Positions 4,732-58,957 of a DNA stretch of 64,000 nucleotides are shown piece by piece. The stretch covers positions 868,001 through 932,000 of the forward strand of contig JANJGN010000056.1 of NCBI GenBank assembly GCA_026770705.1, read 5' to 3'. Numbering within the stretch: position 1 is the first letter of the stretch; every line of letters begins with the position of its first letter. The notes beneath the pieces were generated by a model. The model saw only the letters and a list, made by a program, of their open reading frames with translations, had not been told where the DNA came from and ran no database searches. This DNA comes from Isurus oxyrinchus (Eukaryota). Made by a program: the position numbers and the translations under genes.

Positions 4732-4801
4732 ATGGGGGAACTGATCCTTCACCAGATAGAAGCCATTTACTATCCTATTCTCCCGGCTATTGGTGTTCCT
4801 G
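4732..4801 (+). CDS. GPR139-like class A GPCR copy 1, coding exon 1 (MGELILHQIEAIYYPILPAIGVP+G)
   Basis: ATG at 4732, 70 nt, YYPIL..IGVP TM1 start, donor G|gtagga at 4802. Phase 1 joins in frame to the acceptor before 17391, giving GVP-V-NAVAIVILSRG. Homologous exons lie at 42331 and 58888. Confidence 0.88.
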
Positions 4802-5384
4802 GTAGGAACCTATGCAAAGCAATTAGACATTATAATTGTTAGTTACCTGCTTTTCAAACGACGTTTCTGATCTCTAAAAGGTGCTGATTTACGTTTGGAG
4901 AGTCTGGGGTGCTTGTTTACCCCTAACATCACCTGATTTCTTACTGCTGACTCATCTTTTACACCGTGTTCTCCAGCGGCGATACATTACTAATTAATTT
5001 GGGAATGATTTAAATGGATGCGCTCTGCAATAAATATCATAACCAAATTCAATCCCAGTTTGAAATTATAGATGACACAATCTGTGATATTCAATGAAGA
5101 GGAACTTTGCATTCTGCAACATTCACCTTGCCATAATTGAAAGCGCTTGCGAATGATTTTCATCTGCTTTTCACTATTACAAGCAACGGGCATCCTATCA
5201 AACGACTTAGATTTTAATGCAGCCATCTTTAACAGATCAGTGTACAGTGAAGGTAGCTGGAAGTTGGGGTAAAACACAAAGCTGGATGTGGTAAAAACAT
5301 TGCGACATCTTACTTACTTGTATCTCGAAAGACATTTATTTATTTAGTCCCGTTTGCAGATCACCTTACTGGCTTTAAATAGAA

Positions 5385-7168
5385 AGATAGAATCATGGAA
5401 AGAAGCCAACAAAAGCAGGAGTGGGCCATTCTCCCATTCGAGCCTGCTACGCTACTCATGAAAACAATAACTAATCATCCAGTTCAATAGCCTGCTCTGC
5501 TTTCTCCCCATATAGTTTGGTCCCTTGCTCTCTAAATGTTATATTTAACTCCTTCTTGAAATCATACAATGTTTTCGCCTCAATTACTTTCTGTGGTCGC
5601 TGATTCCTCAAGCTCACCACTCTATGGGTGAGAATTTTGTCCTCATCTCAGTCCTAAATGGTAAATCCCGTGCTCTCAGGCTATGATGGCTGATTCTGGA
5701 CTGCCCCACATTCGGAACATCCTTCCTGCATCTGCCCTGTCTAGTCCTGTTAGAATTTTATAGCTTTCAATGAGATCCCCTCTCTCCTTTCTGAACTCCT
5801 AAACGACAAAATCTCTCCTCATATGTCAGCTCCACCATCCCAGGAATCAATCTGTGAAACATCTGCTGCACTCCCTCTACAAGAAGAAGATCCTTCCTTC
5901 GATAAGGAGGCCAGAACTGTGCACAATATTCGAGGTGCGGTTCAACAATGCCTTGCATATTTGCAGCAAGATATTCCTGCTCCTATACTCGAATCCTGTC
6001 ACTATGAAAGCCATTTGCCTTCTTTACTGGCTGCTGCAACTGCATGCTTACCATTTGTGACTGGTGTACGAAGACACCCAGGTCTCGTTGCATACTTCCA
6101 TCTCTCAATTCACAGATAATAGTCTTCCATTCTGCTTCTTTTACTCAAGTGATTAACATCACATTTGTGCACATCATATTCCATCTGCCACCCATTTGGC
6201 CACTCATTTAGCTTGTCCAGATCTCACTGAAGCATCTCGGCAACCTTCACACTGCACACCCTCCCAACCAGCATTGTGTCATCTGCAAATTTGGAGATAA
6301 TACATTGAGCTCCCTCATTTAAATCAACAATATTTTGTATTGCTGCGGTCCCAACATCCATCTCTGCAGTACCCGAATCATCACTCCCTGCCATTCAGAT
6401 AAAATACCCATTTTTCCATTCCTTGTTTCCTGCCTTCCAACCATTTTTCTATCCATCTCAATACACTACCCCCAATCCCATGCGCCTTAGTTTTTACTCG
6501 TTAATCTATTTTGTTGAAAACATTCTGAAATGTGAGGAAAACCATATCCACTGGTTCCCCCTCATCAAGTCTACTCATTACTTCCTCGATAAATTCCTAC
6601 AGCTTTGCCAAGCATGATTCTCTTTCTTAAAGTCATGCTGAGTCTGTACGATTCTGCCACTGTTTTCCAAGTGTTCAGCTGTTAAATCCTTTAAACTGGA
6701 CTCTAGAATTTTCTCAACTACCAACGTCAGGTTGACTGGTCTATAATTCCCTTTTTCCCCTCAACCTGCCTTTTTAGCTAGTGGAGTTACATTACCTACC
6801 CACCAGATTGTTGGAACTGCTCCAGAATCTATGAAATCGTGGAAAATGACCACCATTGCATCCATTATTTCTAGGGCCACTTCCTTAGGTATTCTGGGAT
6901 GTAGATGATCTGGTCCTGGGGATTTATCGGAATTCAATTAGATCAGTTTATAAAGCACAATCACCCTACTAATTATGTTTCTTTTTTCAGGTCCTCCCCC
7001 TCACTAAACTCTTTGTTCCCCAAAACACCTGGTATGTTTTTTGTGTCCTCCTTTGTAAAGACAGTACCAATGTACAAATTTAGTTGGTCCAGCATTTCTT
7101 TATTCCCGGTTATAAAGTCCACTGTTTCTGACTGTGAGGGGCCTACATTTGTCTTCACCAACCTTTTC
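5385..7168 (-). mobile_element. CR1 LINE, 5'-truncated and degraded (RT region and 3' tail), specific to copy 1
   Basis: Minus ORFs PHLEYCAQFWPPYRRKD...VQQMFHRLIPGM..YEER and KTNVGP..GNKEMLDQLN..FTKED. A CR1-type 3' end lies near 5385. Confidence 0.88.
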
Positions 7169-7510
7169 AGCAAAGAATTATTAGCCATGAATCTTGTTCT
7201 CAAGTACTGAGGCCTGTATTAAATGTACGAACATCAATACCGGTACAGAAATTGCAACTAGATGAGCCATAACTGGTACACTTTTGAAACACCTGTACAC
7301 TGGGAGTACTTATTTTTCCTTCATTATTCTGATAATTTCAACTTCTCGACTTCCACTTCCTGCTGGTTCTTACTCCAAAATCTATATGATTTATAGTGAG
7401 AATTGAAGTGAATTAAAATTAAGCATTGTCGGACTCCCCTGTGTCATTGGGAAACTCACATTCCCACGTTAACTGCAGGTGCTTTTAAATGGTCATAAGG
7501 ATATAAGATA

Positions 7511-7593
7511 AAAACAAAGAAAACTGCGGATGCTGGAAATCCAAAACAAAAACAGAATTACCTGGAAAAAACTCAGCAGGTCTGGCAGCATCG
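7511..7593 (-). mobile_element. 83-bp Penelope 3'-terminal fragment
   Basis: Nearly identical to about 8077-8157. Flanked by taaggatataagata (7496-7510) and taatgatataagata (7594-7608). Confidence 0.85.
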
Positions 7594-7599
7594 TAATGA

Positions 7600-8070
7600 T
7601 ATAAGATATAGGACTAGAATTTGGCCACTAGGCTGCTCGACCTTGCTCCACTACTCAAGTAAACCATGGCTGAAATCATGGCTCCAATCCATTCTTTTAC
7701 ACTATTTCATATCTCTGGATGCATTAAATACTTAGAATTCAGTTCATCGCTTACCTGAACAGACTCAATGACTGAGCCTCCAAAGAGTCTGAGGCATGTT
7801 CTTCCGAACATTCATCATCCTCTGAACGAATTGGATCCTCCTCATCTCAATCCAAAAGGGCATAGTTCATCCTCTGCATGTGTACCTCCTGTTTTCAGGC
7901 ATGCGCCCCAAGGGCAACATCCATCCTGCATCTGTTCCAATAAAACCCTGTCAGATCATTGTTTGGTTCCGTGAGATAACTTCTAAGTTAGCAAGTCTTC
8001 AGAGAGTGCAGGCTCACTCTCGTCAATAATTCTACCTGGGGCTATTTCAGGTGAATCCAAGTATTCCAAG
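7600..8070 (-). mobile_element. Old CR1 3' fragment shared by all three duplication copies
   Basis: CR1 3'-tail sequence with equivalents at about 43545-44010 and 60085-60560. Confidence 0.6.
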
Positions 8071-8076
8071 GCGTTA

Positions 8077-9050
8077 AAAACACAAAAACTGTGGATACTG
8101 GAAATCCAAAACAAAAACAGAATTACCTGGAAAAACTCAGCAGGTCTGGCAACATCGGCGGAGAAGAAAAGAGTTGACGTTTCGAGTCCTATGATCCTTC
8201 GACAAAACTAGGAGAATCCAAGGAAGGGGTGAAATATCAGCCGTTTTAAGGAGTGTGTATGTGGGCGGGGTGGGTTGGGTGGGGGGAGAGAAGTGGGGAG
8301 GGTGGTGTGGTTGTTAGGGAAAAGCAAGCAGTGATAGAAGCAGATCATCAAAAGATGTCACAGACAACAGAACAAAAGAACACATAGGTGTGGAATTTGG
8401 TGATATATATCTAAACGAATGTGCTAACTAAGAATGGATGATAGGGCACTCAAGGTATAGCTCCAGGTGGGGGGAGCACAAAAGATTTAAAAATATTTAA
8501 AAATCATGGAAACAGGTGGGAAAAAGTAAAATCTATATAATTTATTTGGAAAAAAAAGGAAGGTGGGAGAACCAGAAAGGGGGTGGGGATGGAGGAGGGA
8601 GCTCAAGACCTAAAGTTGTTCAATTCAATATTCAATCCAGAAGGCTGTAAGGTGCCTAGTCGGAAGATGAGGTGTTGTTCCTCCAGTTTGCGTTGGGCTT
8701 CACTGGAACAATGCAGCAAGCCAAGGACAGACATGTGGGCAAGAGAGCAGGGTGGAGTGTTGAAATGGCAAGCGACAGGGAGGTTTGGGTCATTCTTGTG
8801 GACAGACCGCAGGTGGTCTACAAAGCGGTCGTCCAGTTTACGTTTGGTCTCTCCAATGTCGAGGGGCCACATTGGGAGCAACGAATGCAGTAGACTAAGT
8901 TGAGGGAAATGCAAGTGAAATGCTGCTTCACTTGAAAGGAGTGTTTGGGCCCTTGGACGGTGAGGAGAGAGGAAGTGAAGGGGCTGGTGTTATATCTTTT
9001 GCGTGGGCAAGGGGTGGTGCCATAGGTAAGGGTTGAGAAATATCGGGTGA
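8077..9050 (-). mobile_element. Penelope-like element, left (inverted) arm: GIY-YIG C-terminal part and full 3' tail
   Basis: Reverse complement of about 9435-10406. ORF 8603-8914 (-) reads ETKRKLDDRFVDHLRSVHKND...SGLNIELNNFRS. Confidence 0.92.
8172..8209 (-). ncRNA. Minimal hammerhead ribozyme-like motif (degenerate), left Penelope arm
   Basis: The reverse complement reads AGTT-TTGTCGAA-GGATC atag GACTC-GAAACGTC-AACT. Confidence 0.5.
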
Positions 9051-10235
9051 GGGAGGACGCCATCCCATTCTCTCAGTTCCTTCGCCTCTGTCGCATCTGT
9101 TCTGATGATTCTACCTTGAAAAAGAGGTCCGCTGACATGTTCTCCGGCTTTCTTAACCGAGGTTTTCCACCCACGGTCGTTGACAGGGCCCTCAACCATG
9201 TCTGGCCCATCTCTCGCGCATCAGCCCTTACGCCTTCCACTCCCTCCCAGAAACATGACAGGGTCCCCCTTGTCCTCACTTATCACCCCACCAGCCTCCG
9301 CATTCAAAGGATCATCCTGAACCATTTCTGCCAACTCCAGCATGATGCCACCACCAAACACATCTTCCCTTCACCCCCCTTATCGGCATTCCGTAGGGAT
9401 CGCTCCCTCCGGGACACCCTGGTCCACTCCTCCATGACCCCCTACTCCTCAACCCCCTCCTATGGCACCACCCCATGCCCACGCAAAAGATGTAACATCT
9501 GCCCCTTCACTTCCTCTCTCCTCACCGTCCAAGGGCCCAAACATTCCTTTCAAGAGAAGCAGCATTTCACTTGCATTTCCCTCAACTTAGTCTACTGCAT
9601 TCGTTGCTCCCAATGTGGTCTCCTCTACACTGGAGAGACCAAACGTAAACTGGGCGACCGCTTTGCAGAACACCTGCGGTCTGTCCGCAAGAATGACCCA
9701 AACCTCCCTGTCGCTTGCCATTTTAACACTCCATCCTGCTCTCTTGCCCACATGTCTGTCCTTGGTTTGCTGCATTGTTCCAGTGAAGCCCAACGCAAAC
9801 TGGAGGAACAATACCCCATCTTCCGACTAGGCACTTTACAGCCTTCTGGACTGAATATTGAATTGAACAACTTTAGGTCTTGATCCCCCTCCTCCATCCC
9901 CACCCCCTTTCTGTTTCTTCCCCCTTCCTATTGTTTTTTCCAATAAATTATATAGATTTTTTCTTTTTCCCACCTGTTTCCATGATTTTTAAATATTTTA
10001 AAATCTTTTACGCTCCTCCCACCCCCACTAGAGCTGTACCTTGAGTGCCCTACCATCCATTCTTAATTAGCACATTCGTTTAGATAATATCACCAACTTC
10101 AACCCCTATGTTTTCTTTTGTTCTGTTGTCTGTGACATCTTTTGATGATCTGCTTCTATCACTGCTTGCTTGTCCCTACAACCACACCCCCGTCTACTTG
10201 TCTCTCCCCACCCAACCCACCACCCCCCCCACCCC

Positions 10236-10236
10236 A

Positions 10237-10270
<34 letters not shown>
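10236..10270 (+). repeat. (CA)n microsatellite inside the Penelope tail
   Basis: Pure CA run; the mirrored position in the left arm has only gtgtgtatgtg. Confidence 0.95.
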
Positions 10271-10272
<2 letters not shown>

Positions 10273-10311
10273 TAAACCAGCTTATATTTCACGCCTTGCT
10301 TGGATTCACCT

Positions 10312-10350
10312 AGTTCTGTCACAGGATCATGAGGACTCGAAACGTCAACT
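10312..10350 (+). ncRNA. Minimal type I hammerhead ribozyme-like motif (degenerate) in the Penelope tail
   Basis: AGTT-CTGTCACA-GGATC atgag GACTC-GAAACGTC-AACT shows stem I, a core, stem II, GAAA and palindromic ACGT with a GUC site. The core deviates from CUGANGA. Confidence 0.55.
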
Positions 10351-10469
10351 CTTCTTGGCCAACGATGCTGCCAGACCCGCTGAGATTTTCCAGGTAATTC
10401 TGTTTTTATTACCAGGCATTAGTTTGGTGAACTCTGCTTGCCACATGACTTCGCCTCTTAACTCCCCAC

Positions 10470-13400
10470 ACACTTCCCCACTGACAGCCCGTGGCAATTT
10501 TTTTTACTTTGTTATAAAGACCAACAGTGTACGTGACACTTGATTTGCGCTAATGCCCATAAGTCACACTGTTTGGTCGTCAATATTCAATTGCTTCATC
10601 AATGTGGTTTCATCGATACTTTGGAAAGTAGTGGGGATCCCCGTTGATGGTTGCAGAACTAACATTCACACGTCCTCACACCCTGAACGTGGGGTTGCCC
10701 ACATGAGGAAATTTGACGGAAAGTAGCATGTTCTCAGCCTTAGCGTCTGTGAATAACTATCCACAACGAAAATGGAAATCTCCAATTGCTCTTGAAGGGG
10801 TTTGCCATTGCACTATCCGCTACGTTCAGCATCTCAGCATCGTGGTTAAATTAATCGTGCCGGCCGTGTAATAACGGACCTAGAATTGTAGATTAGACCT
10901 TTCAAATTCTGCGGGAAGCATCTCAACTCTTAACTCCTCAGAATCTGACCACCATCAACTGATCATCCGGAGATTTGTGTGACACTTTGAGATTGCCCGG
11001 ATGATTTGAGAACAACCAATAAATTCTGTAACAATTTGAACAACGTGTACTGTTTGATCAGCACCACAACAGTCACCATAAACATTCTGCACGGGAATGG
11101 CAGTGTTGGGGATACATCGGGCTTTAGGTTACACATTCTGTTTGTGCACAACTCTGCTCAGTGCGTCATGAAAACCCAGTTTGAAGTTGCATCTCTGGCT
11201 GAAATGTACGCCATTTAGCACAATGATAGTGCCATACAACGCGATGGAGGGAATCCCCAATGTGAAGGTGGATTTCCTCTGAACAAGAACTGTTGGTAGT
11301 CAATCCAATCAAAAACATTATGGGCACATGGACCCGCGTCGCGTAGGTTGGCGGAGCCAGTTCAGTTAGGGTTTTCCACCTTGTTTGTTCCCTGAGCACT
11401 TGCCAAATACCCAGCCTAGCAGTTATCCTCACGTCCAGACCAGCTCAGCATTAGTTGTGCTACTGAAACTCTCTTGGTCATAAACATCGGAATCCCCCAT
11501 GTAGAGTATAGCTTTTACTTGGAACCCCAAATCTCCCTCTACTGATGATCATCTGCTGAAGGGAACGGTAGGTAGCATAAACCAGGGGGTATTCCATGCC
11601 CATGTTTTAGCTGATGCCATGAGATTTCATTGAATTACCAAGTCGTTTTAATGCTAAGACCAATTCTTCACATTTAACGTAAATACTTTGAAGCAATGGC
11701 ACTTAAGGAAGCAAAAAGTCTATTGGGTGATGCCCAGAAAATGGGTGGAAAATTGACATTTTGCATAAGGTTACTTACTCAGATTTTGGCTGATGATTGA
11801 GATGAACTTTGTAAGCAATAAGAACAATTATTCCGATAAAGGTAAATAGGTTGAATAATGATGGTGACAGAATGCATCACAGTACCACAGGCTGCTTTTT
11901 CCTGGATTAATTCAGTGTTTGTGAATGTTGTTGGAGCAGAACTCATCAAGACAATGTAGTGTATTCTATCACACTCCTGATTTGCGCCTTGAAATGAAGG
12001 CTTTGCAGATTGAGAGGGTGATTTCCTCCCTGCAGGATTCTCAGGTCCTGACTTGCCCGTCTAGTCACAGTTTCTGGTCAATGATATTTCCGAGGATGTT
12101 GGAGATGGGGGACCGAGGATGTTGGAGATGGGGGATTAAGCGATGGTAATGGCATTAACGTTTAAGGATATTTTCATGGAAACTCTGATGGCTACGCTGG
12201 CCACTCTCTGTCAATTATGTGGAGCGAATATTACTCATTGGTTTTCAGCACCAGACTGGATATTGCGGAGGCCTTGTTACACATGGACATGGAATTCTGT
12301 TAAGTTGAGAATGGTGCTGAAGTTTGAGCATTCATCAGCGGGCACTAATCCACCCCAGTTCTGCACATGCCTACCACTCCCTAGACACCTTCAGCACAAT
12401 AACCCCCCTTCTGTGCTATTGTTGGATAGACTTTCAACGATAAAGAAGATGAAAATTGTTTGGAACAGGACTCTGGTCCGAGGATCTCGTGCAATGATGT
12501 AATGAGGCTGAGAGGTACCACCTGCAAATAAACATATTTAATTGTGCTAGGTATTATTCCATTTAATGGAGGCCTTTCCTGCTTATTCTTATCAACTCCG
12601 AAATTCTTTGGGGTCTTTGAGATCATACTCTGTCAATTGTCTCGATATGCAGCGCAGGCTATCTCCCATCACGTCATGAGTTCTCCATGTTTGAATCAAG
12701 ACTGAACTAATAGCTGGGCATCATACAAAACACAAAATTTCCTTCACTGGGTAGCTGACTGTCCGGTAAATGGCAATTTCAACACTATACATTACACTTT
12801 AAATCGCTTTGCTAATGATCAAGAGTAAGTGGGTGGTCTGGAAATTAGATTTTTGTGTATGCCTTGCTTTTGGGGCACGAAAATACCTGTGCTTTTTTGT
12901 TTCCCATGTTCGCTAAAATGCCAATATTTTAGCTGTACTGCTCCAGCTTGGCTCGGATGGCTTGTTGAGGGGCACTGGTCTCCCGCCTTACTGGTAGAAA
13001 CTTACAGGAACCGTAGCCTCTGCATAATCTAGTCCCATCAATCGTTTCATAATATAACGTACTATGCATCATATTGGCTGAAGGCTGTTAACTCAGATGC
13101 TGTCATCCTCAGGAGGAGGCCGGAACGTTTCATCCACTGGTTACTTCAGGATGAATGTGGCTGCAAATCATTTAGCCATATCTTTGAAGTAATGACCTGG
13201 GCTCAACAATCATTGCTGGTGAAGATGCTGATCGAGAGTCCTCAGGCAGTGATTTGTTCAATTGCCCATCACCATTCCAAACAGTATGTAAGAGCCCTTC
13301 AGAGCTGAGATTTGGTTATTTATTTGCCCTGTCAATTGCGCCCTGATTCCCCTATTTTACTTGCAAGTTGTCCTGCCTTGGAGCTGCATCGGGTAAGCAT
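10470..13400 (-). mobile_element. Ancient second-family LINE remnants (EN/RT) in the GPCR intron, shared with copies 2 and 3
   Basis: ORF 11166-11432 (-) ARLGIWQVLREQTR...HLHIGDSLHRVVWHYHCAKW is a LINE EN-linker region. Homologues lie at about 43990-46790 and 60540-63440. Confidence 0.65.
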
Positions 13401-14303
13401 TATCTGTTATTTCTGGTTCAACTCTACGCATATGACATATGTCGACAAAGGTCCTTCCTCAATACCTCTGAGCAGGTGACCTTGAATAATTAGATGTACA
13501 AGGGCAGAATCCACATGGAAGCACAATTACTTGCAAATTCCTTTCCAAGTCACAGATCAACATGACTTGGAAATACATTACCTTTTTATTTCCCGACTGA
13601 CACTGGATCAACAGCTGGAACTCCCTAGCTCGTAGCACAGTGTGTCCATCTGCATCATATGGACTGCAAAACTATAAAAAAAATCCCTTTCAAGGAGAAT
13701 TAGTGAAAACGAATAAACGCTGATGTTATCAATTAATCGATTGAAAGGAAAATGATGCATCTTGCCGAATCTATGCTTATTGCGCCCTTGTGCATTAAAA
13801 TGATGGCCCTTTCTGTTTCTTTCGTGTAGGGTAAACTAAGATTAAATATAACATTCTTATGTTGCTTTAATTTTACCCAGTATTCTCGTCCCTAAGTGAG
13901 GACCTGTATGTTCAATCGCTCGTGAAAATCTAAGCCTGTAACCAAATAAATTGGCCGAATTATTTGACCACAAATCGCCGCCCCCCGCCCCCTATCGAAC
14001 TGTATTCACAGCTTCATAATCTGCCGCCTGAGGTCCTGGTTCAAACTGCCGATTGGACGTGGACCCCACTTTGCATCTCTCATTGCCTCCTCCCTCTTTC
14101 GAAGGGCACATTGCTGTTAAACTGATAAGGCAAAAGGAAGACACTCAGTTGGTTTGTCGCTTATCCGATTGGGTCTTTGCAGTAACGACACCAGAGGAAC
14201 ATAAACCAAAGTGCAGTGCACCTGACCTATGTTTCTTTTCCAAATTACAAATCAATAACGGGTCAAGCACAAATTGCAGATGCATACCTAAATGGATAAT
14301 TCC

Positions 14304-14308
<5 letters not shown>

Positions 14309-14337
<29 letters not shown>
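14309..14337 (+). repeat. (TA)n microsatellite
   Basis: Pure AT dinucleotide run. Confidence 0.95.
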
Positions 14338-14346
<9 letters not shown>

Positions 14347-17300
14347 CTTTTAATTCAGCAGGACATTCCGTGATAATTTGTTTGCTATTGGTACGCGTAA
14401 TTTGATAGCTAAGACAATGAATAATGTATTTGCTAGTTTACTATTCAATTTGGCAGATAATTGAGTACTTGATTCAATGTATATTTCAACGTTATATTTG
14501 GAGGAACATTTAAGAAGTGCATTGACAAGTTATTTTTTTTTTGTAATTAGTTGTATTCTAATTTTGGCTCGTTAAGTACATAGTTGTGTACATTACTGGG
14601 TTTTTGTTAAAGGGTTGCATCTTGACAGTGCTTGCCAGGACAATTTGGGTGATGATATATTGGTGAAACATCTTTATATAAATCAAAACAGTGAAATCCT
14701 AGAATGCAAAATACAACTTAATTCTCTCATTGTAAATTCATGGTGTTGTACTGATACAAATATTGATTTTGCTCAGCTGAAACATTGATATGTATAGGGC
14801 AACTGATGTCAACCTTTATTTTTGTCAACATTTCTCTCGGATTGTAGTTTAACCAAACTGGCTTTGATTTTCCAATGCTTCCCTCCTTTCCAGTACAGCC
14901 TACACTGGCATCAGGAATTGCATTTTCAATTTATGCCCATCACCCAGTCTTTGCAAGTCTGCTTATAATTAGTTGTTGCAGTTCTCATCAAGTCAATGAA
15001 GTTTAATGCTTGTTTTCGAGTTTGAAAACTTTGAATGAGAGGCAGCAGCTGCCACATAAGCTGCGAATGCAACATGAAGAGACGGCTTTTTATTTGGGTG
15101 GTCAAAGCTTATCAACTTTCATTACAGAAATATAAAAATCTGTTTACCTTTCTCCGAATAAATCTACTTATTGCTTTAAAAATTAGTTTAAAGTAGTAGT
15201 CAGCAAATGAATTAAATAATCTTATTCAAAACGCTGCTTCGTCTACCCATCGACAGTCTTGCTTCATTGCATTGTTGCTATCCTAAATGTCAAAAACATT
15301 ACATCATTCTGCACCATTTTGTATAGCCTTAAAAAGCACTTGGTATTTAAATGAACTCCTTATTCATTCTTCCCTCCATTGTGAAAATGTGAATTTTCCA
15401 TTCCGTGAACCGTGCCCCTGTGATTGACCAAAGATTTCAGTCTAAACAATATTCTGCACGATTACCAGATCCATGATTTCCGATCTTACAACACAGCCAC
15501 CAGGGCTCCACGCAAAATTTCAATTCAATTCAAATTCAGAAATTTTCAATTACTTACTTTGGATATTAATGAAAGCACGTGTTCTATGCTTTTTTAAAAA
15601 TTGTACATAATAATTTGACGAACGTATGCAATAAAAAAAGCATTTCCAGTAGCAACAAGTTGGTTCAATCAGTTTAACTGAAAATGTTATAATTCGAAAA
15701 GCATACGGTGGTTAATTAAGTAAGCAACATGAATTATAACATGCAGCGCTGACTAGCTAAGGCTCACAGCAAACTCATTTGATTTATATTCATTATTGAT
15801 TGTAATCAGTAGTTAGACGAAATGATTTACTGTAATCTCTCATGTAATAACTATTCGTTAAATTAATTCACTAATTTATGAAAAGTTTCCTGAATTTTGA
15901 AAAATAAACATGAATGTTCCTAAATACTTTTAAAATTCGCGCTGTTCTGAGCCGCCCAATCTAAAATGAAATTAGCTACAGAGGGTTTTATTATAAATAT
16001 AGTTTTGTTAAGAGTTACTTCGATAATATAAGGTCATCAACAATTCACAAATTCACACTTCTAATCATATCTTAGTTTTCCAATGCGTTACTGACTCAAG
16101 TCAATTTGTTCATCATTGTCAATATCTCTCTGTATCTTCTGCACTTGGTGTCCAACAGGAATCTGTGTTCAGCTTCATGTATCGAAACAGTTCACAATGA
16201 TGCGGTTCTTGAGATGAATAGTAATATTTTCTGACTTTTCAGCAACCAAGAGTTTTGTTCTTCATCCGACCAAAGAAGGGAACATCTCTGCTGACTTCTG
16301 AGTAGCGAAAAGCAGACTTACACCACGTTTGAATAACAATTTTGATTTGCTCATTTGCCATATGGTGGGAATCACTCTGATTCTCATTGCCTCTCCATTT
16401 TCCGATATCGATGCAATGTACATGAAAACTAGCCTGCCCAGATAAACGTTGCCCCGCACAGCACCTCTTCTTGGCCAATATATGTTCCTCACTCAATCTG
16501 AGCAGTCGGTATAGCAATATAACTTCACCCTAGTTGGATATTAAACTGCCCCATCCAGCCTGCCCAGCCTGTGTAACAACTTTAATTCAGTCTTGCTGCT
16601 ATGAAGCAGCGATACATTCCACCTGAACAAGAACTTTATAATGTTCAGCCTGCATATCAATCTTGCAACACTCAAATTGCCTTAAACGACCTGACTGAGC
16701 GGCCCTAAGCTCGCAGAAATACTTCACCCTGCGATCTCAATAAGCATTTTACATTATTTTGATTGTCTTTCACCACCACCGTTAGGATGTCCCAGTGAAC
16801 GTTCACTCAGCCTCGCATATGTTGGTCCCTCTTTGTAGTCTACTCACTGTTACACCTTGTCCTGTTCAATCTCAACTTTACCCTCCCAAGTGTTCTGAGT
16901 ACATTCGTGCATCTGGGCAACATTTTGCATTCAAGCTGTCAGCCTTGTTGCACAATACCCATTCCCAGAACTTATTGCAAGACTCTACATTGCTTCCTCT
17001 GCCCAGATCACGTTGCACCTTTACACATGAATTGGCTCTTTATCGTGTCCCATATCACACTGAAAAATTACCATGCCAAGGCACTTTTGTGACTTCAAAT
17101 TCTTCACATTCTTGCTCAACAGGCCCAACAGCTGCCCAGCCTTAATGGAGGATTTTTCTACCAGAAAACGAATAATCAATGAACGTTTCCCATCCGTGTG
17201 CACTTGTATAAGGTTCAGTCCATGTTTAGCACACGTTACTCTCAGGAAGCATGCAACACATGCTTGGATGAAATACATGAAATGATGCAAAAATAAACAA

Positions 17301-17390
17301 AATATGTATTGAGTACCCTTTGCTGCCATCGGAAAAAAACCGTTTCACCTTTATCAAATATTTCATGTTTTGTCTCTGCATCTCTGACAG

Positions 17391-18280
17391 TGAATGCTGT
17401 TGCAATTGTGATTCTTTCCCGTGGAAGGTGTGGTCTCTCGAAATGGGTTACACGTTATATGATAGCCAAGGCAGCAGCTGACCTCCTGGTTGTTTGTACT
17501 GACGTAATACTTACGAGTACAGTAGATATTTATTGCCCTAGTTCATTCTTCTCAATGCCCCCTGTGTGCTGTCTAACACTAACACTGAGTTATGTAGTCA
17601 CATCAGCCTGTGTCTGGTTAACAGTGATGTTCACATTCGATGGTTTTGTGGCCATATGTTGTGAGAAGCGTAATAAAAAATATTGCACAGAGAAAACGGC
17701 AACTGCTATCATAACAGTGGTATCTGTGTTGAGCTGCTTGATAAACATTCCTTGGTATTTTGCAGATGAACCTGAAAATATAGTGGACAATGTAAATCAC
17801 GGTTGTGTCCTAAAACAGACATTTATCATTTCTGCTGAATGGGCCGCATTTGACTTGTTTACCCTTACCTTAACCCCGAGTGTTCCATTCATTCTAATTT
17901 TGTTGCTAAATATGTTGATGGTTAGGCGTATTTTAGTGGTCAATAAAGTCCGCAGGGGCCTCCATGTTTGCAGCAATGGCGAGCATCACAAGGATTCAGA
18001 GATAGAAAGCCGAAGAAAATTCATGAATTTACCGTTCAATATATCCAGCAGTTTTATATTTTTGTGGGCCACTCTGGTTGTATATTTTGTCTCTTTGCAT
18101 ACAACAATTATTTCATATTCTGGTCTTAATAAGCTTGAATCAGTTGCATATATGCTTGTGCTTCTCAGTTGCTGCACAAATACATTCATTTACGTTTTGA
18201 CACAGGCTAAGTTTAGGAAGGAGCTGAAGAATGGGATGTTGTACCTTAGGAAATTGTGCGTAAAATTATTCAATTCATAA
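17391..18280 (+). CDS. GPR139-like class A GPCR copy 1, coding exon 2 (end of TM1 to C-terminus; spliced product 319 aa)
   Basis: Acceptor tctctgacag ends at 17390. The open frame lies within ORF 17309-18280 and has hydrophobic TM segments and motifs ILSRGRCGLSK, AAADLL (TM2), FTFDGFVAICC (TM3, DRF variant), LTPSVPFILILLLN (TM5), DSEIESRRK, LWAT (TM6) and SCCTNTFIY (NPxxY-like). Confidence 0.9.
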
Positions 18281-18476
18281 TTACAGCTGAAAATGCATTG
18301 ACATACTCAGGAGAACACGCACGTGAACCTTGAAGCAACTCATATTGGCAAAGTGCTTTAGATGATGCTTATACTCTCTGGATAAAATTGTATACCTACT
18401 GTTTTATACTATAAGCTCAAATTGTACTCTTTTTCACCATATTATGTAGTCAAAGGTGAACGTGATGTGTAATAAT

Positions 18477-18482
18477 AATAAA
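18477..18482 (+). terminator. Putative polyadenylation signal, GPCR copy 1
   Basis: AATAAA about 200 nt after the stop codon; a positional equivalent lies at 52420-52425 in copy 2. Confidence 0.5.
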
Positions 18483-22896: not shown

Positions 22897-25720
22897 CCAG
22901 AAAACCATAAGACATGGGGGTAGAAATTACGCCATTAGGCCCGTGGAGTCTGCTCCGCTTTCAATCATGGCTGATATGTTTGTCAAACCCATTCTCCCGC
23001 CTTCTCCCCATAACCTTTGATCCCGTTACCATTCAAGAACATATCTATTTCGTTCTTAAGTATACTTAATGACCTGGAATGCACAGCCTTCTGTAGCAAT
23101 GAATTCCATAGATTCACAACTCTATGGCTAAAGAATTTTCCCCTTATCTCTGTTCTAAAAGGTCTTCACTTTACTCTGTGTCTGTGCCCTCGGGTCCTAG
23201 TCTCTCCTACTAATGAACACATCCTCCCCGCCTCCACACTAACCAGGCCTTTCGGTATACTGTAGCATTCAATCCGATCCCCCCTCATCTTTCTAAACTC
23301 CCTCGATTATAGACTCAGTGTCCTCAAACTTTCCTCATAAGTTAAGCCTTTCATTTCTGGGATCGTTCTCGTGAACCTACTCCGGACCATCCCCAGAGCC
23401 AGAACATTATTCCCGAGATATGGGGCCCAAAATTGCTCAAAACATTCTAAATGTGGTTTGCCCAGAGCCTCATAAAACCTCAGCAGCATATATCTGGTTT
23501 TATAATCTATTCCTCGCGAAATAATTTCCACCATTGCATTTGCCTTCCTAAATACCGACACAACATGCAAGTTAACCTTAAAAGTGTCCTGGACATAGAC
23601 TCCCAAGCCCCTTTGCACTCCCGAATTCTGAATTCGCTCTCCATTTAGAAAATAGTCTATGCCTCTATTCTTGCTGGCAAACTGCATGGCCTCACATTTT
23701 CCCACGTTATATCTCATCTGCCACGTCTTTGCATATTCTCCTAACCTGTCCAAAATCTACTGCAGCCTCTATGCCTCCTCATTACTACGTGTCTCCCCAC
23801 CTATCTTTGTATCATCTACAAACTTAACCAGGATTCTCTCAGTTCTTTCATCTAGATCATTCATGTATAAAGTGAAAAGTTGTGGTCGTAACACTGACCC
23901 TTGTGGAACTTCAAGAGTTTCCCGCCGCAATCCTGAGAATTGCGCCCTTATTTCCAGTCTCTGCCTCCTGCAAGACAGCCGATCTTCTATCCACGGTAGT
24001 AGTTTGCCTCTAAAACCAAGCGGGTTCTAATCTTACTGAGCAGCCTCCTGTGGGGCTCCTTTTCAAAGGCCTTCTGGAAGTCCAAGTAGGTAATATCAAC
24101 TGCGTCTCCTTTGTCTAATCTACTCGTTATCTGCTCAAAGAATTTTGACAGATTTGTTAGGTGTGAACTCCCCTTGATGAAACCATACTGACTTTGCCCT
24201 ATTTTACCAAGCACTTTCAAGTATTCCGAAATCTCGTCCTTATTAATGGACCCTAAAATCCTACCGATGACCGAGGTCAGGCTATTCGACCTATAAGTTC
24301 CCCTCTTTTCTATAACGCCATTATTAAACAGTAGGGTTACATTAGTGGTTTTCCAGTCATCTGGCACCCTCCCTGACACCGGTAATTCCTGAAAGATCAC
24401 CACTAACGCCCCCACTGCCTCTTCAGCTATCTCCTTCAGAACTCTGGGGGGTAATCCATCTGGTCCAGATGATTATCCACCTTTAGACCTTTCAGTTTTC
24501 CTAGCACCTTCTCCTTGGTAATGGCCACCATACTCATCTCTGCCCTCCGACTCTCTTGAACTTTGGGGATGTTACTCGTGTCATCCACCATGGAGATTGG
24601 CACAAAGTACTTATTCAGTTCCTCCGCCATTTCTTTGTCCCCCATTAGTACTTGTCCAGCGTCATTTCCCAGTGGTCCAATGTCCACTTTTGCCTCTCTC
24701 TTACACTTTATATATCTAAAAATTACTCTTGCAATCTTCTCTTATACTATTGGTTAGTTTACCCTCTTATTGAAACTTCTCTCTCCTTATTTCTTTTTTA
24801 ATTATCCTCTGTTGGTCTTTGTGGACCTCCCAATCCCCTGTTATCCCATTACTCTTCATGCCTTGTTATGATTTCTCTTTAGCCTTTCTGCTGTCCCTGA
24901 CTTGCTTTCTCAGCCATGGTTGACTCATCCTCCCTTTTGTATGCTTCTTATTCCTGGGGATGATTTTTTGCTGTGCCTCCCAATTTACTCCCGAAACTCC
25001 TGCCATTGCTGTTGCACTGTCTTTCCCGCTAGGCTCATCTCCAAGTCAAATCTGGCCAGCTTCTCCCTCATGCCCCTCTAGTTGCCTTTATTCATCAGTA
25101 ATACCACTACATCTGATTTCATCTTTTTCCTCTCGAACTACAGGGTAAATTCTTTCATATTAAGGTCACTTCCTCCTAAGAGTTCCTTCAGCTTAAGCTC
25201 CCAGATCAAATCTGCCTCATTACACATCACTAAATCTAGAATTGCCTGTCCCCTAGTGGGCTCCACCACAAGCTGCTCCAAAAAGACATCTCGTAGACAT
25301 TCCACAAATTCCTTTTCTTGGGATTCACTACCAGCCTGATTTTCCCACTCTACCTGCATATGAAAATCTTTGATCACTGTAACCTTGCGTTTCTTACACG
25401 CGTTTCCTATCTCCTCGGGTATCTTGAGCCCCACATTCTCACTACTTTTCAGAAGCCTGTACATAACTTCCATTATGTTTATATTTTTTACCTTTGCGGT
25501 TCCTCAACTCTACCCACATATTCTAACTCATTTTACTCAACGTCATTTCTAGCTATCGATTTCATTTCATTTCTTACCAAAAAAGCAACCCCACCCCCTC
25601 TGCAAACCCGCATATCTTTTCGATACGATGGAAATTTAGCTCCCAGTCCTGATCCCCTTGCTGCCATGTCTCCGTGATGCCCACCACATCATATCTGAAA
25701 TTTGAATCTGTGCCACACTT
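22897..25720 (-). mobile_element. CR1 LINE ORF2 remnant (APE endonuclease end, RT and 3' tail), about 2.8 kb, frameshifted
   Basis: Minus ORFs EFVECLRDVFLEQLVVEPTRGQAILDLVMCNE, VPDDWKTTNVTLLF, YLDFQKAFEKEPHRRL, WQMRYNVGKCE and PHLECFEQFWAPY. Confidence 0.93.
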
Positions 25721-40260: not shown

Positions 40261-41583
40261 TTCCAGAGAACATTTCAAGGTCTTATCATTCTCTCGTTAT
40301 TTTCTCTGACTTTTCTTTGCTTCCAAGCAATATTGTCCCCATTTCCTTTGTCTCTGCACGTGCTAGCCATTGAATCCTAAATACGAATAGGCCGGCACAT
40401 TTGTGTCACTTAAACAGTCACCTTCAAACTTACCCAGGTAGTAATTGTCGCCCGCATTCACAGGTCACCGCAGCGCAGTCCACATCCGCCCTCAATGTGC
40501 GGTGCCAGGCCCGGTCGCCACAATTTTCCATACCTGAGGCACGGCTCTGTCTGCCATACTCTAAAATCGAAGCACATGCACCTTGGTCCCTCCATTCTAT
40601 CACATTCTTTAGGACAGTGACAGTCCATCTCTATTTCCCTTCATTACCCCTTCTGCCAAACTGTATTATTTTACATAGCAATACAATAAATTGCATCTGC
40701 TAATCCCTTGCATATTCTGCTCGTCTCTCGATTTCCGATTCGTATCATCCTCACTGGTAAACTCCCACCATGTCTCCATCACTAACACTTTTTGAGACGC
40801 TGTGCTGTAATCCAAGATTCAACTGGTCTACGTCGACCAAAAATAAAACAAACCCGGATTCCTGGGGAATGCCACCGGCTACCATCATCCAGACTAAATG
40901 AAAACGATAATAAATAGTTTCTGTTTTCTGTGCATTACCACAATTGATGCAATTGGAAAGCGACTCCTCCCCCTCCCACAATCCGCGCCTCTGTCCTTTT
41001 TAATGAGCGTAAATGTTCTTAAGCAGCCTTATCTGCGATTAGTTGTCAATTAATATCTCAAAATCCACTTTGCCATGTATTAATTCATTAATTTTCTCTG
41101 TTGTGATATCAAAATGCTAGTAGGTTATACAAGCATATTCTTATTTTAAGTCATGGTGTTACAAACCAATGACCATTCTTAATTAAACTCAACCGTCTCC
41201 AATTGCTGGCTAGACTCTTGGCAGTCAGGGCAGGTTAAATTATTCGTTTAATGCGGCAGTTGAACAGGCAGAGCAGTGATTTAGAGAGAGTGGGGAGCTG
41301 ATCACGAACAGGTGACATTTTTTTAAAAGAGAAGTAGATGAGTTGCCAGGGCAGAAAGGTAAAAGAGCGGTAGCTGAGCTGCCAGAGGAGAGTTTTAAAA
41401 AAAAGCTACAGCGAGGTATTCAAAGCAAGGATTAGACCACAGACATCAGTCCAATATTGGACGTTTCACTTTGAAGTGGTTGCTTTCACAAGGAGAGAGA
41501 CTGACGTAACCTGTTTGTTCAATGACTGAAATTGATTTATTTCTTCAGGGAACATGAATGAGCTAATGGGGATTTAACTGTTG

Positions 41584-41591
41584 TATAAATA
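41584..41591 (+). promoter_or_regulatory. Putative TATA box of GPCR copy 2
   Basis: TATAAATA about 155 nt upstream of a conserved donor-like site (gtacgt at 41740). Confidence 0.4.
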
Positions 41592-42330: not shown

Positions 42331-42400
42331 ATGGCAGAACTGATACTTCTCCAGATAGAAGCCATTTACTACCCGATTCTCGCAGCTGTTGGTGTACCTG
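42331..42400 (+). pseudogene. GPR139-like GPCR copy 2, coding exon 1 (MAELILLQIEAIYYPILAAVGVP+G); donor is GC
   Basis: ATG at 42331, 70 nt, homologous to 4732-4801. It is followed by gcaaga where copy 3 has gtaaga. Confidence 0.85.
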
Positions 42401-50900: not shown

Positions 50901-51327
50901 TGCACGACTACCTCTTCCAGAGTCTAACTCTGCTTTCCCAAGATTCCATTTTGCGTCTTTATTTCCCAAATGATATTGCACCTTCACACATTAGTTGTCT
51001 CTTTACACCTCCTACTTACTATCTAAAGTTCAACATGCCGAGCCGTTTTTGTACCTTCAAATTGTCCACATCACATTCTCGCTCAAGAAGCTCAATCGTT
51101 ATTGCACACTAGTTGCCCAGTTTAAACTGATGATGTTCCTATCAAAAGAGGAATGATCATTTCCCTGTCCACATTTACTAAGTCCAATCCACATTTAGTA
51201 TATGCTCATCTCGGGAAGCAGGTCCTGCATGTTTGGGTGAAATGCATGAGCCTTTGCTGCAACTGCAAGAGAAGTTGCCTTGTTCATCTGTGACGTCTAT
51301 CTCCTTCTCTCTCTTCCTCACTTACAG

Positions 51328-52232
51328 GTAATGTTGTTGCGATTGTGATCCTTTCCAGAAGAAAGTGTGGTCTCTCCAAATGCATTACATGTTATATGAT
51401 TGCAATGGCAGCGGCTGATCTCCTGTTTATTTGTACTGAAGTCATACTGAAGGAAATGCTGAATATTTATTTTCCGGATTCATTCTTGACCATGAGCACG
51501 GTATGCCATCTAATGGAGACATTGATTTATGTAGTCACTTCAGCCTCCGTCTGGTTGACATTGGTGTTCACCTTCGATCGTTTTGTGGCGATATGTTGTC
51601 TGGAACTGAGAAAAAAATATTGCACAGAGACAACAGGCGCAGCTGTCATATCAGTAGTGAGTGTTTTGAGTTGTTTGACAAACATTCCCTGGTATTTTGC
51701 TTATGAACCTGCATATATAATTGGCAATGTACCTCGCGGTTGCAAACTAAAACAGACATTTTTCAGTTCTGCTGAATGGGCTGCATTTGATTTCTTTGTG
51801 CTAACTTTGACCCCACTTGTTGCATTCATTTTAATTTTGTTGCTAAATGTTTAGACGGTGAGACGTATTTTAGCTGCCAGTAGAGTTCGCAGGGGTCTCC
51901 GCGGTTGCTGCAATGGAGAGCATCACAATGATCCAGAGATAGAAAGACGAAGAAAGTCCATAATTTTACTCTTCAGTATAACCGGCAGCTTTATATTGCT
52001 CTGGACAACTCCAGTCGCATATGTTTTCTCTCTGCATACAACAATCATTTCATATTCTGGCACTAATGAACTTGGGTCAGTTGCAATCATGCTTGGGCTC
52101 CTCAGCTGCTGCACAAATACATTCATTTATGTGCTGACACAGTCTAGGTTTAGGGAGGAGCTGAAGAACGGAATGCAATACTCTTTGAAACGGTGCGTAA
52201 AATTAGTCAAATTACAGCTGAAAACCAATTGA
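51328..52232 (+). pseudogene. GPR139-like GPCR copy 2, coding exon 2 with a single in-frame nonsense codon
   Basis: Acceptor cttacag ends at 51327. ORFs 51345-51854 and 51858-52232 are the same frame, split by TAG at 51852-51854 (TTG/Leu in copy 1). FTFDRFVAICC, DPEIERRRKSIILLF and SCCTNTFIY are intact. Confidence 0.88.
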
Positions 52233-52419
52233 CATATGCAGGAGGACTTAAGAACTGTGCCCGAAGGGAGTCACATTAGCAAAATACTTGAAGTGATGTA
52301 TGCTGACTCTGGATAAAATTACATCCCAGGTGAAAATACTCTTTTATGGTGTAGTCTCAAATTGAACTCCTTTTCACAGTATTCTATAATAAATGGTGGA
52401 CTTGAGGCAAGATGATAAT

Positions 52420-52425
52420 AATAAA
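52420..52425 (+). terminator. Putative polyadenylation signal, GPCR copy 2
   Basis: AATAAA about 190 nt after the stop codon, homologous to 18477. Confidence 0.45.
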
Positions 52426-55400: not shown

Positions 55401-55536
55401 GGAACAGCCATTTGTGATTTACAAATGTATTACTGGATGCAGAAGCACAATTGGAAATCATAATGAAGTCATCAAGCAAAATGGTGACTCTCCTCCTGGC
55501 TGATTATAATTGTTCTGCCGTTTCTCTGCCTTGCAG

Positions 55537-56140: not shown

Positions 56141-58144
56141 CGCTGCTGGTCACCTGATCCAAGATGCCACAGCCACTCTGAACGAAAAACACAACAGTTC
56201 AGTGCAGACGTTTGCTAACTTGGCAGCATGTTCTCCAAGAGAACTAACTGAATGAGCAAATTAAACATCGCCTGACAAAAGCAAGTTCGGCATTTAGCAG
56301 GCTGCACTCACTGTCTTCTGAAAGAAAAACATGGAGCTCCTCTCAGATGGAAGATCAAAGACTGTCAGGCCGTGTTTTTTTATCTCAATTCTATGTCAGT
56401 GCGAGATATGCAACATTGATCAGCCTCATTGAAACCTTGTGAAAATATTCCAATTTCACTGTCTGTAATCCATTTCCAACGGTAAGTGGCAGGACTGATT
56501 CCCACACACAAATATTTTTGATACAGCTCCTCTATCTGTGGATATATTGTTAATCGAAAGTGTTCAGAGTCCACAGCAAAGCGCTCAGCATGCAGCTGGA
56601 TATGTCCGGATTCTGCCCAATGCGAGCACAGTAGTCAGCGAATAAGCCTTCACTCAGTCGCTGTTCAGTGACCTATGTGCAAGGTTTTACTCTTGGCCGT
56701 TTGGCAACGTTGCTGTTTGTCCTGAAATGGTTATGTAAGCCTGTGCCAAAATCTTTGAATGTAAACTGGATAATGGCCGGCAAGTATATGACAAATAGAG
56801 CTGAAGCAATGACAGAGACTTACTTGGCAACGCAAGTCACATGAAAGGGGTCCACACTGTCGAACCGCCTTGCGTCACTCTGATTATCAGGTCATCGTCA
56901 AAAGAGCAAATGACATTGATCATTTTTTTCATCTTTTTCAGGGCGGCTTCATATTCCAGACTGGTTTGGATAGTTCATTGACCAATAAAGGATATTGAGG
57001 TCATGAGGACGTATGTGTATGTTTTGTGGAGGGTGTGGAGGGGCGGGTGTGTGACGCAGGTTGGAGAAGTGCAGGCAGGAAAATGGAGCTGAGGCCACGA
57101 TCAGGTAAAACCATTTTCTTTTCGAGTTGCAGAAGGGACTGAAGAGGCCGAATGACCTACCCCTGCTCTTAATTCTTGTGATTTTGGTGTTGTATGAGAT
57201 GCAGCGCAAACCAACAGCTGGAGATTCTGCTTCATTATAATGAGTGATTCCATCGGCCAATGATTGTTGGCAGAAGACATCTGAGGGTCAGGAGTTAAAT
57301 GTTTAGCTTGGAATATTCCCCCAGCTTTGTACTCGAATTAACCTATTATTTTATTCAAAACATTGTTTTTCAATCAGCCCAAACATCTCTCTGGACGTAA
57401 TATGTGAGTGGGTGGAATAGACTGATTTGCTGTCGGGGGGCGGGGTGGGGGGGGGGATGGTTATTGACCATTTATAGGTTTGGAAACGTCTGGAAAGAAT
57501 TATTTTGAAATTTTCTGATTGAGAAAACAAATGCCTTCTCCATACAGATCGTGTTACACCTCACGTAATCACCAGCACGAACCCTCCATGTCCTCTGGTT
57601 GCATTTTTGATTTGCAGGCGGAATGGTGCAAATTTCTGGGCAACGCCATAGAATGTAGGCCCAGTCACCGACGGAGGTATCAGTGCCAGTGTAATCCAGG
57701 AACAATCTGGGCAGCGTATGTCTTCCCTCTGGGAGCTTGAATGTCAAAGACAAGGATCACACACGTGCCTTGTTGGAACATAGAATGGATCCAGAAACAC
57801 AAAACAGTGGGGAACATCAGAAATGTGCCCCCTATTTAGGGAGGTTCAGAACCATTGTGTTGCTAAGATTCATTTTGTGTAAATTAGTGACGAGTAATCC
57901 CGCAACAACCCCTAGTGGCTTAATCATTTCCCGCTCTGACCATCTCCGATAATATTTATCCATTGATCGCTATCATGCAGCCCCTTCAATTGGATTGACC
58001 ACAGACATCAGTCCAAAATTTGATGTTTCACTTTGTAGTGGTTGCTTTCACAAGGGAGTGACTGACATAACCTGTTTGTTCAATGACTGAAACTGATTTA
58101 TTTCTTCAGGGAACATGAATGAGCTAATGAGGATTTATCTGTTG

Positions 58145-58152
58145 TATAAATA
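58145..58152 (+). promoter_or_regulatory. Putative TATA box of GPCR copy 3
   Basis: TATAAATA about 155 nt upstream of a conserved donor-like site (gtatgt at 58300). Confidence 0.4.
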
Positions 58153-58887
58153 AGAGTTTCTCTGAACGGATCATTTCATGTTCTCCAAAAGACTCAGTGT
58201 TTCTGCTTCAGTTAGCGCTTCTCACAGCGAATAGCGTTTTTTCACTTCGTCAGATATGGGACACTTACAAACCCATTCTCGAAGTTATCGTTGTCTAATG
58301 TATGTTTATTTACATACTCTCAGGCTAAAAATGATAATCTCTCTTATTCTATCCATTCATTGAATGTGGGCGACGCTGGCGAGGCCAGCATTTATTGCCT
58401 TCCCTAATTGCCCTTGAAAAGATGGTAGTGAGATGCATTTTTGAGCTGCTGTAGTCTGTGTTATAACGGGGAGGTCCAGTACATTGACGCAGAAGCAGTG
58501 AAGAAATGGAGATATCTTTCCAAATCAGGGCGGTGAGTGGTTTGGAGAGCAGCTACTAGATGGTGGCGTTCCCAAGTCTATGTTACTCTTGTCTTTCTAG
58601 GGAGTAGCGGAAGTGGGTTTGGAAGTTTATGTACAGGACTTCATGTCTGTAAAATATAGCAGCTTATCTCTCTTCCATGTTACAAATGCTTTGCTGCCAG
58701 TTTTACCTTGATATTTTGGGTTTAATTAATGTGGTATCTCCTTCTGAGTATCGACAGTGATTTTACTTTATTTATTTTATGTTTCTGAAATTAATTCAAA
58801 GGTGACGGGGGTTTGTAGTTTCCAGCTCACATCGTTCCATTCCATCCTGTTTACCCATCTCAGGAGGAAAGACAGATTCTCATAAAG

Positions 58888-58957
58888 ATGGGAGACCTGA
58901 TAATTCACAAGATAAAGGCCATTTACTACCCTATTCTCGCAGCTGTTGGTGTACCAG
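58888..58957 (+). CDS. GPR139-like GPCR copy 3, coding exon 1 (MGDLIIHKIKAIYYPILAAVGVP+G); exon 2 outside the window
   Basis: ATG at 58888, 70 nt, canonical donor CAG|gtaaga at 58958. The downstream intron is collinear with the copy 2 intron up to the window end. Confidence 0.85.

Follow-up and report, generated by a model that had tools for sequence, protein, structure and literature searches.

A tandem receptor array in Isurus oxyrinchus and a candidate ligand-diversified GPCR repertoire related to GPR139 in cartilaginous fishes

We describe here a family of class A G-protein-coupled receptors (GPCRs) from cartilaginous fishes, which we approached through a stretch of 64,000 nucleotides of the Isurus oxyrinchus genome (GCA_026770705.1, contig JANJGN010000056.1, positions 868,001 to 932,000 of the forward strand; this whole stretch is referred to as ‘the window’, and positions are counted from its first letter). 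The window carries four receptor copies, A to D, that are related to the orphan receptor GPR139. Considered together with their relatives in other sharks and rays, they very probably represent a functional repertoire in which the individual receptors have diversified in the ligands that they recognise. That this repertoire serves to detect chemical cues from outside the animal is, in our judgement, an evenly balanced proposition. More tentatively still, it is possible that cartilaginous fishes possess one more family of vertebrate chemoreceptors, exceeding their V2R set in size, which would have grown from one GPR139-related orphan, be sparsely expressed in sensory epithelia, run parallel to the FMRFamide/srw-type expansions of protostomes, and help to explain how keen chemical senses coexist with tiny sets of odorant receptors (ORs), trace amine-associated receptors (TAARs) and V1Rs.

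A variable pocket within a conserved receptor

The reading of a ligand-diversified repertoire draws on the distribution of variability over the receptor. Thirteen helix positions, each either in contact with the agonist or needed for activation, were chosen in advance from the account of the GPR139 cryo-electron microscopy structures (PMC8807744), and were mapped onto the family by hand from motif anchors, with a profile alignment giving a consistent result. Two sets of paralogues were then compared, 52 from Heptranchias and 35 from Heterodontus, both taken from the best 120 of 907 protein matches. Entropy at the pocket was 2.02 bits in Heptranchias and 2.30 bits in Heterodontus, against 0.72 and 0.87 bits in 155 other helix columns (p 1e-5 and 5e-6) and 1.07 and 1.21 bits in 68 outer, non-pocket columns (p 5e-4 and 1e-4), the p values being one-sided and treating columns as independent. 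Pairwise identity at the pocket was 0.36 and 0.30, against 0.75 and 0.69 at other helix positions, and 47 distinct pocket strings occur among the 52 Heptranchias paralogues, with 33 among the 35 from Heterodontus. Variability peaks at every third to fourth residue along transmembrane helices (TM) 3, 6 and 7, with several pocket columns swapping between basic, acidic, polar and aromatic residues; the least variable parts are intracellular loops 1 and 2 and the inner halves of the helices.

Two groups of single-copy relatives, introduced below, serve as controls. For 20 amphibian orthologues, the pocket gave 0.09 against 0.42 bits, with identities of 0.96 against 0.84; for a second clade, more divergent overall (0.60) and represented by 74 of the 120 matches listed, the corresponding values were 0.63 against 0.92 bits (p 0.10) and 0.77 against 0.67. 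Within the expanded family, nine cross-species sister pairs, six of which stem from one group of four, have pocket identities of 0.69-0.92, lying above the other helix columns in six cases and below them in three; same-species pairs at 70-90% helix identity have pocket identities of 0.31-0.50. The window's own genes A and B have 6 of the 13 pocket residues in common. The overall pattern is that predicted of receptors that have diversified in ligand binding while keeping a signalling face in common.

Size, distribution and ancestry of the family

An earlier, sequence-only reading of the window had proposed a lineage-specific family, and database searches show a large one: among the 907 matches, the best 120 are all elasmobranch and come from 15 shark and ray species, nearly all carrying the automatic name ‘probable GPR139’, and at least 52 clusters at 90% identity are found in one species. 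A search of representatives at 50% identity returned 119 at E ≤ 1e-30, of which those named comprise 16 from sharks, rays or chimaera and three from an amphibian, the coelacanth and a teleost. A metagenome scan for DNA of further paralogues gave five loci, at 21-23% identity.

In a careful 37-row tree the chondrichthyan genes form one clade (support 96/93), with a chimaera protein inside it; this clade is sister to one from amphibians and sturgeon (97/90), and a second low-copy clade stands separately (100/97). The tree omits 45 rows, including the long P0265, P0181 and P0184 and both lamprey rows; a quick tree of 82 rows is concordant (supports of 85 and 96), and neither tree contains a true GPR139 or GPR142 sequence. 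Genes A and B group with proteins from the basking shark and white shark (100/95), in keeping with a likely lamniform origin of the window.

The amphibian-sturgeon clade (P0221, P0408-P0427) holds one row per species in 20 amphibians, 66-74% identical to P0221, plus sturgeon, and no teleost or amniote row occurred in the 25 matches of a search with this gene. Its pocket is polar and invariant. As a single-copy receptor it could be studied in Xenopus or axolotl, where it shows the likely starting state of the expansion and offers a good target for ligand discovery. The second conserved clade (P0235, P0276-P0393) extends over coelacanth, fishes, amphibians, reptiles and three sharks; none of the 120 matches listed of 145 carries the name of a bird or mammal. 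It has Ser or Cys instead of Trp6.48, and two of its models are named as TMEM183A isoforms, which hints at a neighbouring gene. The possibility, raised at the outset, that the window copies might simply nest within a conserved family is borne out in so far as low-copy relatives do exist across vertebrates, but the window genes themselves lie in the expanded sister clade. The family is, as far as these comparisons indicate, a large and lineage-specific chondrichthyan one, derived from a single lineage that is still single-copy in amphibians.

Relationship to GPR139, motifs and fold

Human GPR139 is the best solved relative, with a profile score of 106.7 bits against 80.2 for the next, and also comes top in two other searches. 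GPR139 is described as a single conserved gene with two exons and at least ~70% identity across vertebrates (PMC7318219), and the bamboo shark has separate GPR139 and GPR142 genes in a published orthogroup table. That the shark receptors are simply GPR139 orthologues is ruled out by their multi-copy state, by a score of only 30.8 bits between gene A and human GPR139, by differing ligand residues, and by the presence of the bamboo shark's own GPR139 and GPR142.

In common with GPR139 and GPR142, which are activated by L-Trp, L-Phe and melanocortin peptides, the family has two coding exons, Trp6.48 and Met7.39, and lacks both the proline of NPxxY and the cysteine of CWxP. It differs from GPR139 in being multi-copy and fast-turning, in having a Thr in place of Pro6.50, and in the presence of its disulfide cysteines: Cys3.25 and its partner in extracellular loop 2 (ECL2) are kept in 52 of 52 Heptranchias paralogues, whereas GPR139 has Asp at 3.25. 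At the GPR139 ligand residues F3x33, H5x43, W6x48, R6x51 and N7x38, gene A reads Y, T, W, L and Y, and gene B reads Y, V, W, P and I, such that His5x43, Arg6x51 and Asn7x38 are kept in neither; across 87 paralogues, His5x43 is present in 38, Arg6x51 in 11 and Asn7x38 in 19, with Trp6.48 in all 87. As the aromatic-amino-acid site of GPR139 is not kept in A and B, the amino-acid sensing suggested by the sequence-only reading is not implied.

Several of the features first taken as peculiar to the expansion turn out to be old. The number of residues before Asn1.50 has a median of 24 in sharks, compared with 43 in GPR139 (from its numbering), but the single-copy clades have 25 and 26, and a short N-terminus is therefore ancestral rather than special to these receptors. 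TM1 had been placed about 12 residues after the initiating Met; in the model of the closest relative it begins at residue 2. Human GPR139 reads DRY, LWAP and NFFLY, and hence the absence of the NPxxY proline and CWxP cysteine, listed earlier as atypical, is likewise old. Replacement of Pro6.50 by Thr (LWxT), on the other hand, is derived, since the amphibian sister keeps Pro6.50; it is the only one of the losses that is, which rules out treating the motifs as a whole as shark-specific oddities. The DRF motif stands for gene B, but gene A reads DGF.

The family belongs to class A (rhodopsin-like), as indicated by Pfam 7tm_1 scores above the curated cut-off of 30.5 bits (54.2 for A, E 1.9e-14; 51.2 for the first half of B; 68.4 for P0001, the closest database protein) and by an AlphaFold model with seven helices plus helix 8 (pLDDT, the predicted local distance difference test, 89.5; pTM, the predicted template-modelling score, 0.86). 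This fold was modelled for the relative P0001, and not for the window's own proteins. It matches class A generically, with tied Z-scores of 27-29, GPR139 ranking 33 in Foldseek and being absent among the 50 entries listed by VIA-align. Only 7tm_1 was matched at E ≤ 0.1 for A and ≤ 0.05 for P0001, with no OR, TAAR, V1R, T2R or srw profile among the hits.

Four copies in the window and their state

All four copies are on the + strand, as found by a six-frame scan, by tblastn with two long frames and by a scan for exons, and they are the four paralogues that had been described at the outset: one open, one with a nonsense codon, one incomplete and one decayed from another subfamily. The first two of these placed receptor pieces within 17.3-18.3 kb, 51.3-52.2 kb and 55.5-56.1 kb, each on +. 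When the 70-nt exon at 4732 served as an ungapped query, further copies appeared at 42331 (60/70 identical) and 58888 (57/70), with none on the opposite strand; a scan with 431 relative proteins detected no further receptor piece in the window, and an Rfam scan gave no match there.

Gene A has a first coding exon of 70 nt (4732..4801, +) running from Met to the middle of TM1 and ending with a GT donor in phase 1, an intron of 12.6 kb (4802..17390, with its AG acceptor at 17389-17390) that is collinear with those of B and C, and a large coding exon (17391..18280, +) that is open to its stop codon but carries R3.50G (the DGF motif), M50K, S234F and L238P. Spliced, the exons give 70+890 = 960 nt, an open frame of 319 codons plus stop, and the basking shark protein P0001 (319 aa) has an identical junction peptide. 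Gene B has its first coding exon (70 nt) at 42331..42400 (+), followed by a GC donor, and its large coding exon at 51328..52232 (+), with DRF kept and a TAA codon at 51852-51854, in TM5. Only the first coding exon of gene C is present (58888..58957, +; 70 nt, GT donor), its intron running past the window end. Copy D (55537..~56140, +) is the decayed large exon of a distant subfamily, with an AG acceptor and the phase seen in the other copies; it has several stops, a frameshifting deletion that takes out the DRF region and a truncation at the start of TM6, with no first coding exon within the window. Its best matches (P0140, P0158 and P0167 among others) belong to that other subfamily and branch in the tree at a distance from A and B.

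Units A, B and C are collinear across both upstream DNA and introns (62-76% for A-B and A-C, and 81-83% over ~5.9 kb for B-C), and thus whole genes were duplicated in tandem. Together with the stop and GC donor of B and the decayed state of D, this upholds the original description of a tandem birth-and-death array. In three rows at contig ends, a different acceptor with a pyrimidine tract lies two bases ahead of the Asn1.50 codon, which argues that other paralogues share the intron position. Over the 1.2 kb at 51200-52400, 165-245 contigs per DNA run align at ≥88%.

The sole open gene is itself likely to be decaying, given that, of 79 columns with a conservation of 95% or more, A deviates at 12 (M50K, R108G at Arg3.50, S234F and L238P included). 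All 120 relatives have Arg3.50, as does B; its replacement bears on the function of A rather than on its place in the family. Gene B deviates at nine of the 79 columns, its stop included. Among the 120 relatives the median number of deviations is 1 and the maximum 7, with 5 and 4 in the two nearest, although the consensus is partly defined by these same, mostly intact annotated models, and the comparison favours them somewhat. The 12 broken columns rule out gene A as a safe functional model. At the position of the stop in B, all covering contigs from three DNA runs (14, 12 and 10), which represent two related organisms, read TTA, and the stop is therefore recent, private or an assembly error; these contigs mix orthologues and paralogues. 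Between A and B the ratio of non-synonymous to synonymous change (dN/dS) is 0.39 over 289 codons.

What the repertoire might detect

Drawing this together, we put forward a tentative scheme for how the repertoire could have formed and might work. New copies would arise by unequal crossover, as tandem duplicates of whole genes, and would survive when an altered pocket conferred a useful specificity, or otherwise decay, with A and B likely at the decaying end of this process. Each surviving copy would bind a different set of ligands through its varied pocket; frequent charge swaps there, together with the peptides and amino acids that serve as ligands in the wider group, suggest that those of the repertoire are polar and water-soluble. 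The G-protein face would be common to all, with coupling through Gq or Gi/o by analogy with GPR139, which couples to Gq/11 first and also to Gi (PMC8807744). Olfactory cells, taste cells and the solitary chemosensory cells of skin, gill or gut are candidate sites of expression.

Two points speak for a chemosensory role. The known olfactory families of sharks are small, with OR, TAAR and V1R sets of 4-9 genes and about 34 V2Rs (PMC10116579, PMC11979771), and protostome FMRFamide/srw-type receptors include lineage-specific clades of candidate chemoreceptors (PMC8557429, PMC11682238). The FMRFamide type falls in the same wider group as GPR139 and GPR142 (PMC8557429), and the srw/FMRFamide-receptor-like candidates of nematodes, gastropods and planarians form lineage-specific expansions that have been read as chemosensory, most of these genes being unconfirmed as sensors (PMC11682238). 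The shark expansion is independent of these, and is in a vertebrate; look-alikes in the atlas carry srw domains in 17-74% of members, whereas the window proteins and P0001 have no srw match.

Comparison with the established vertebrate repertoires points both ways. The OR, TAAR, V1R/ORA, V2R/OlfC and T2R families resemble the present one in their tandem clusters, pseudogenes and species-specific expansions, and in having pockets that vary among paralogues and are kept among orthologues; the shark family differs in being an unrelated class A branch with a coding intron in TM1. Such an intron is a point against a chemosensory reading, as ORs and TAARs are not known to have one. Other considerations also weigh against the scheme. 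The catshark nose is described as consisting almost entirely of TRPC2/Go microvillous neurons with robust V2R expression (PMC10116579), and it is not obvious where a further olfactory family would fit in. The paralogue sets may include haplotype duplicates or isoforms, and a working receptor may be missing from the window altogether, since A breaks Arg3.50 and B has both a stop and a GC donor. The pocket evidence is one of amino-acid variability rather than a codon test of positive selection, and the same pattern is equally expected of immune or barrier receptors.

The best-surviving alternative, although we consider it rather unlikely, is an immune or barrier sentinel repertoire in which the receptors would detect peptides of microbes, parasites or damaged tissue on leukocytes, mast-like cells or sensory endings of the skin and gill. 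Its models are the MRGPR/MAS and formyl-peptide receptor arrays of tetrapods, which also combine a short N-terminus and degenerate activation motifs with tandem birth and death and varied pockets. Tandem turnover and pocket variation fit this equally well, charge swaps in the pocket suit peptides, and the fold matches are to receptors for peptides and chemoattractants, with the reservation that every class A match is tied. No MRGPR or MAS receptor is found in the best 60 of 578 profile matches, and the shark family keeps the TM3-ECL2 disulfide, in which it differs from them. Cartilaginous fishes are reported to be without MAS1 and related receptors (PMC8455134), such that another family may fill their role; against the immune reading, GPR139 is described as brain-expressed and neuromodulatory (PMC7318219, PMC8807744), which suggests a neural origin.

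Receptors for the animals' own signals, whether neuropeptides or peptide cues between sperm and egg or between conspecifics, could also have expanded alongside a varied ligand family, and we regard this as improbable. GPR139 does answer to aromatic amino acids and melanocortin peptides (PMC8807744), the protostome sister group binds amidated neuropeptides (PMC8557429), and the invariant polar pocket of the amphibian sister is as expected for one endogenous ligand. The many distinct pockets among the paralogues of one species, and the rapid death of genes, speak against it; 47 different pockets in 52 receptors combined with such turnover is unusual for endocrine signalling. Less probable still is a largely neutral expansion by unequal crossover in repeat-rich DNA, with pockets varying because ligand binding is unconstrained, even though three of the four window copies are broken or likely decaying, a decayed repeat array precedes A, and retroelement pieces crowd the introns and spacers. 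Against it, the inner helices and loops are conserved across paralogues (as is Trp6.48 in all 87), pockets are shared by sister pairs whose species are distant, dN/dS between A and B has the value given above, and the stop of B is absent from all covering contigs of two related organisms.

Among published receptors, Rinne et al. 2019 (PMC6504862) gave the name ‘GPR210’ to three low-copy orphan subtypes close to GPR139 and GPR142 that occur in gar, coelacanth and fishes. With their short N-terminus, both disulfide cysteines and the same motif losses, these likely correspond to the single-copy clades found here; the word ‘shark’ does not occur in the main text of that survey, and no expansion is described there. 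The RefSeq ‘probable G-protein coupled receptor 139’ of sharks, rays and chimaera is the family itself, under an automatic name that lumps at least two conserved single-copy clades with it. A literature search by titles and the starts of abstracts, with subscription journals mostly outside its reach, found no published description of the expansion. Family names are likewise absent from the supplementary tables seen for whale shark, a shark lymphocyte atlas, catshark cartilage and little skate, where members may stand under LOC numbers, so that these blanks are not evidence; gut atlas tables list true GPR139 and GPR142 only.

The genes themselves are already in RefSeq; the present analysis adds their sister gene in amphibians and sturgeon, a test of the pocket with controls, and the likely dying state of the window's sole open gene. 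The observation made in the sequence-only reading is confirmed with corrections, and its interpretation is partly supported: this is a GPCR repertoire evolving by birth and death, in a branch for which no such repertoire was known from vertebrates. Sharks and rays have been described as GPCR-poor, smelling almost only through their ~34 V2Rs (PMC8455134, PMC11979771, PMC10116579); at least 52 distinct members in one species under the GPR139 label, with a pocket pattern of the sensing type, would change that picture whether their role is sensory or immune.

Upstream regions, repeats and retroelements

A conserved upstream block with a TATA-like site, which we regard as a putative promoter, lies on the + strand ahead of gene A (3934..3978), gene B (41544..41588) and gene C (58105..58149), with the TATA-like block 740-760 nt upstream in all three alike. 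The block has three matches in the window, one ahead of each first coding exon, and none in 100 shuffles; as its pattern was derived from these same copies, the match shows shared descent and not function. In gene A, a putative intron of the 5' untranslated region (4134..4707, +) would run from a GT donor-like site at 4134 to an AG at 4706-4707 after a pyrimidine tract. A, B and C all retain the donor-like site and, immediately ahead of the start codon, the tract with its AG; together with the TATA-like block, these sites suggest a non-coding first exon upstream. The exon layout proposed earlier is therefore right as to a phase-1 intron inside TM1, but the 70-nt exon is probably not the first.

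Within the block (3934-3966, 41544-41576 and 58105-58137), a TTC-N3-GAA element sits beside a TAAT core, an arrangement that resembles a STAT site and also the pairing of Ebf and homeodomain sites in the promoters of odorant receptors; with only three copies, all related, function and descent are not separable here. At 40600-41430, the upstream homology of B to A and C ends ~110 nt before the conserved block, and the DNA of B farther upstream has thus been lost or displaced.

Ahead of gene A only, ~2 kb before its TATA-like block, is a decayed, oriented repeat array of ~27-29-nt units (1337..1895, +), with five copies at 69-100% to the reference unit. Seven of the nine matches to its motif in the window fall within the array, all +, against a chance expectation of 3.5 ± 1.9 for the whole window; Tandem Repeats Finder (TRF; score 30) did not pick it up. 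No repeat array was found ahead of B or C, and the place before C that matches the array of A is occupied by copy D.

The 21-kb spacer between A and B, in which no receptor piece was found, contains decayed reverse transcriptase pieces of the long interspersed nuclear element (LINE) type at 23310-25503 (-; RVT_1 E 5e-6, below cut-off). Inside the intron of gene A there is a Penelope-like piece at 8074-10410, with a related piece at the start of the window (148-802). A 285-aa frame within the former (9026-9880) weakly matches GIY-YIG at E 3e-4, which is below cut-off, and the same intron holds an inverted duplicate at 87% identity, 8110-9057 against 10410-9428.

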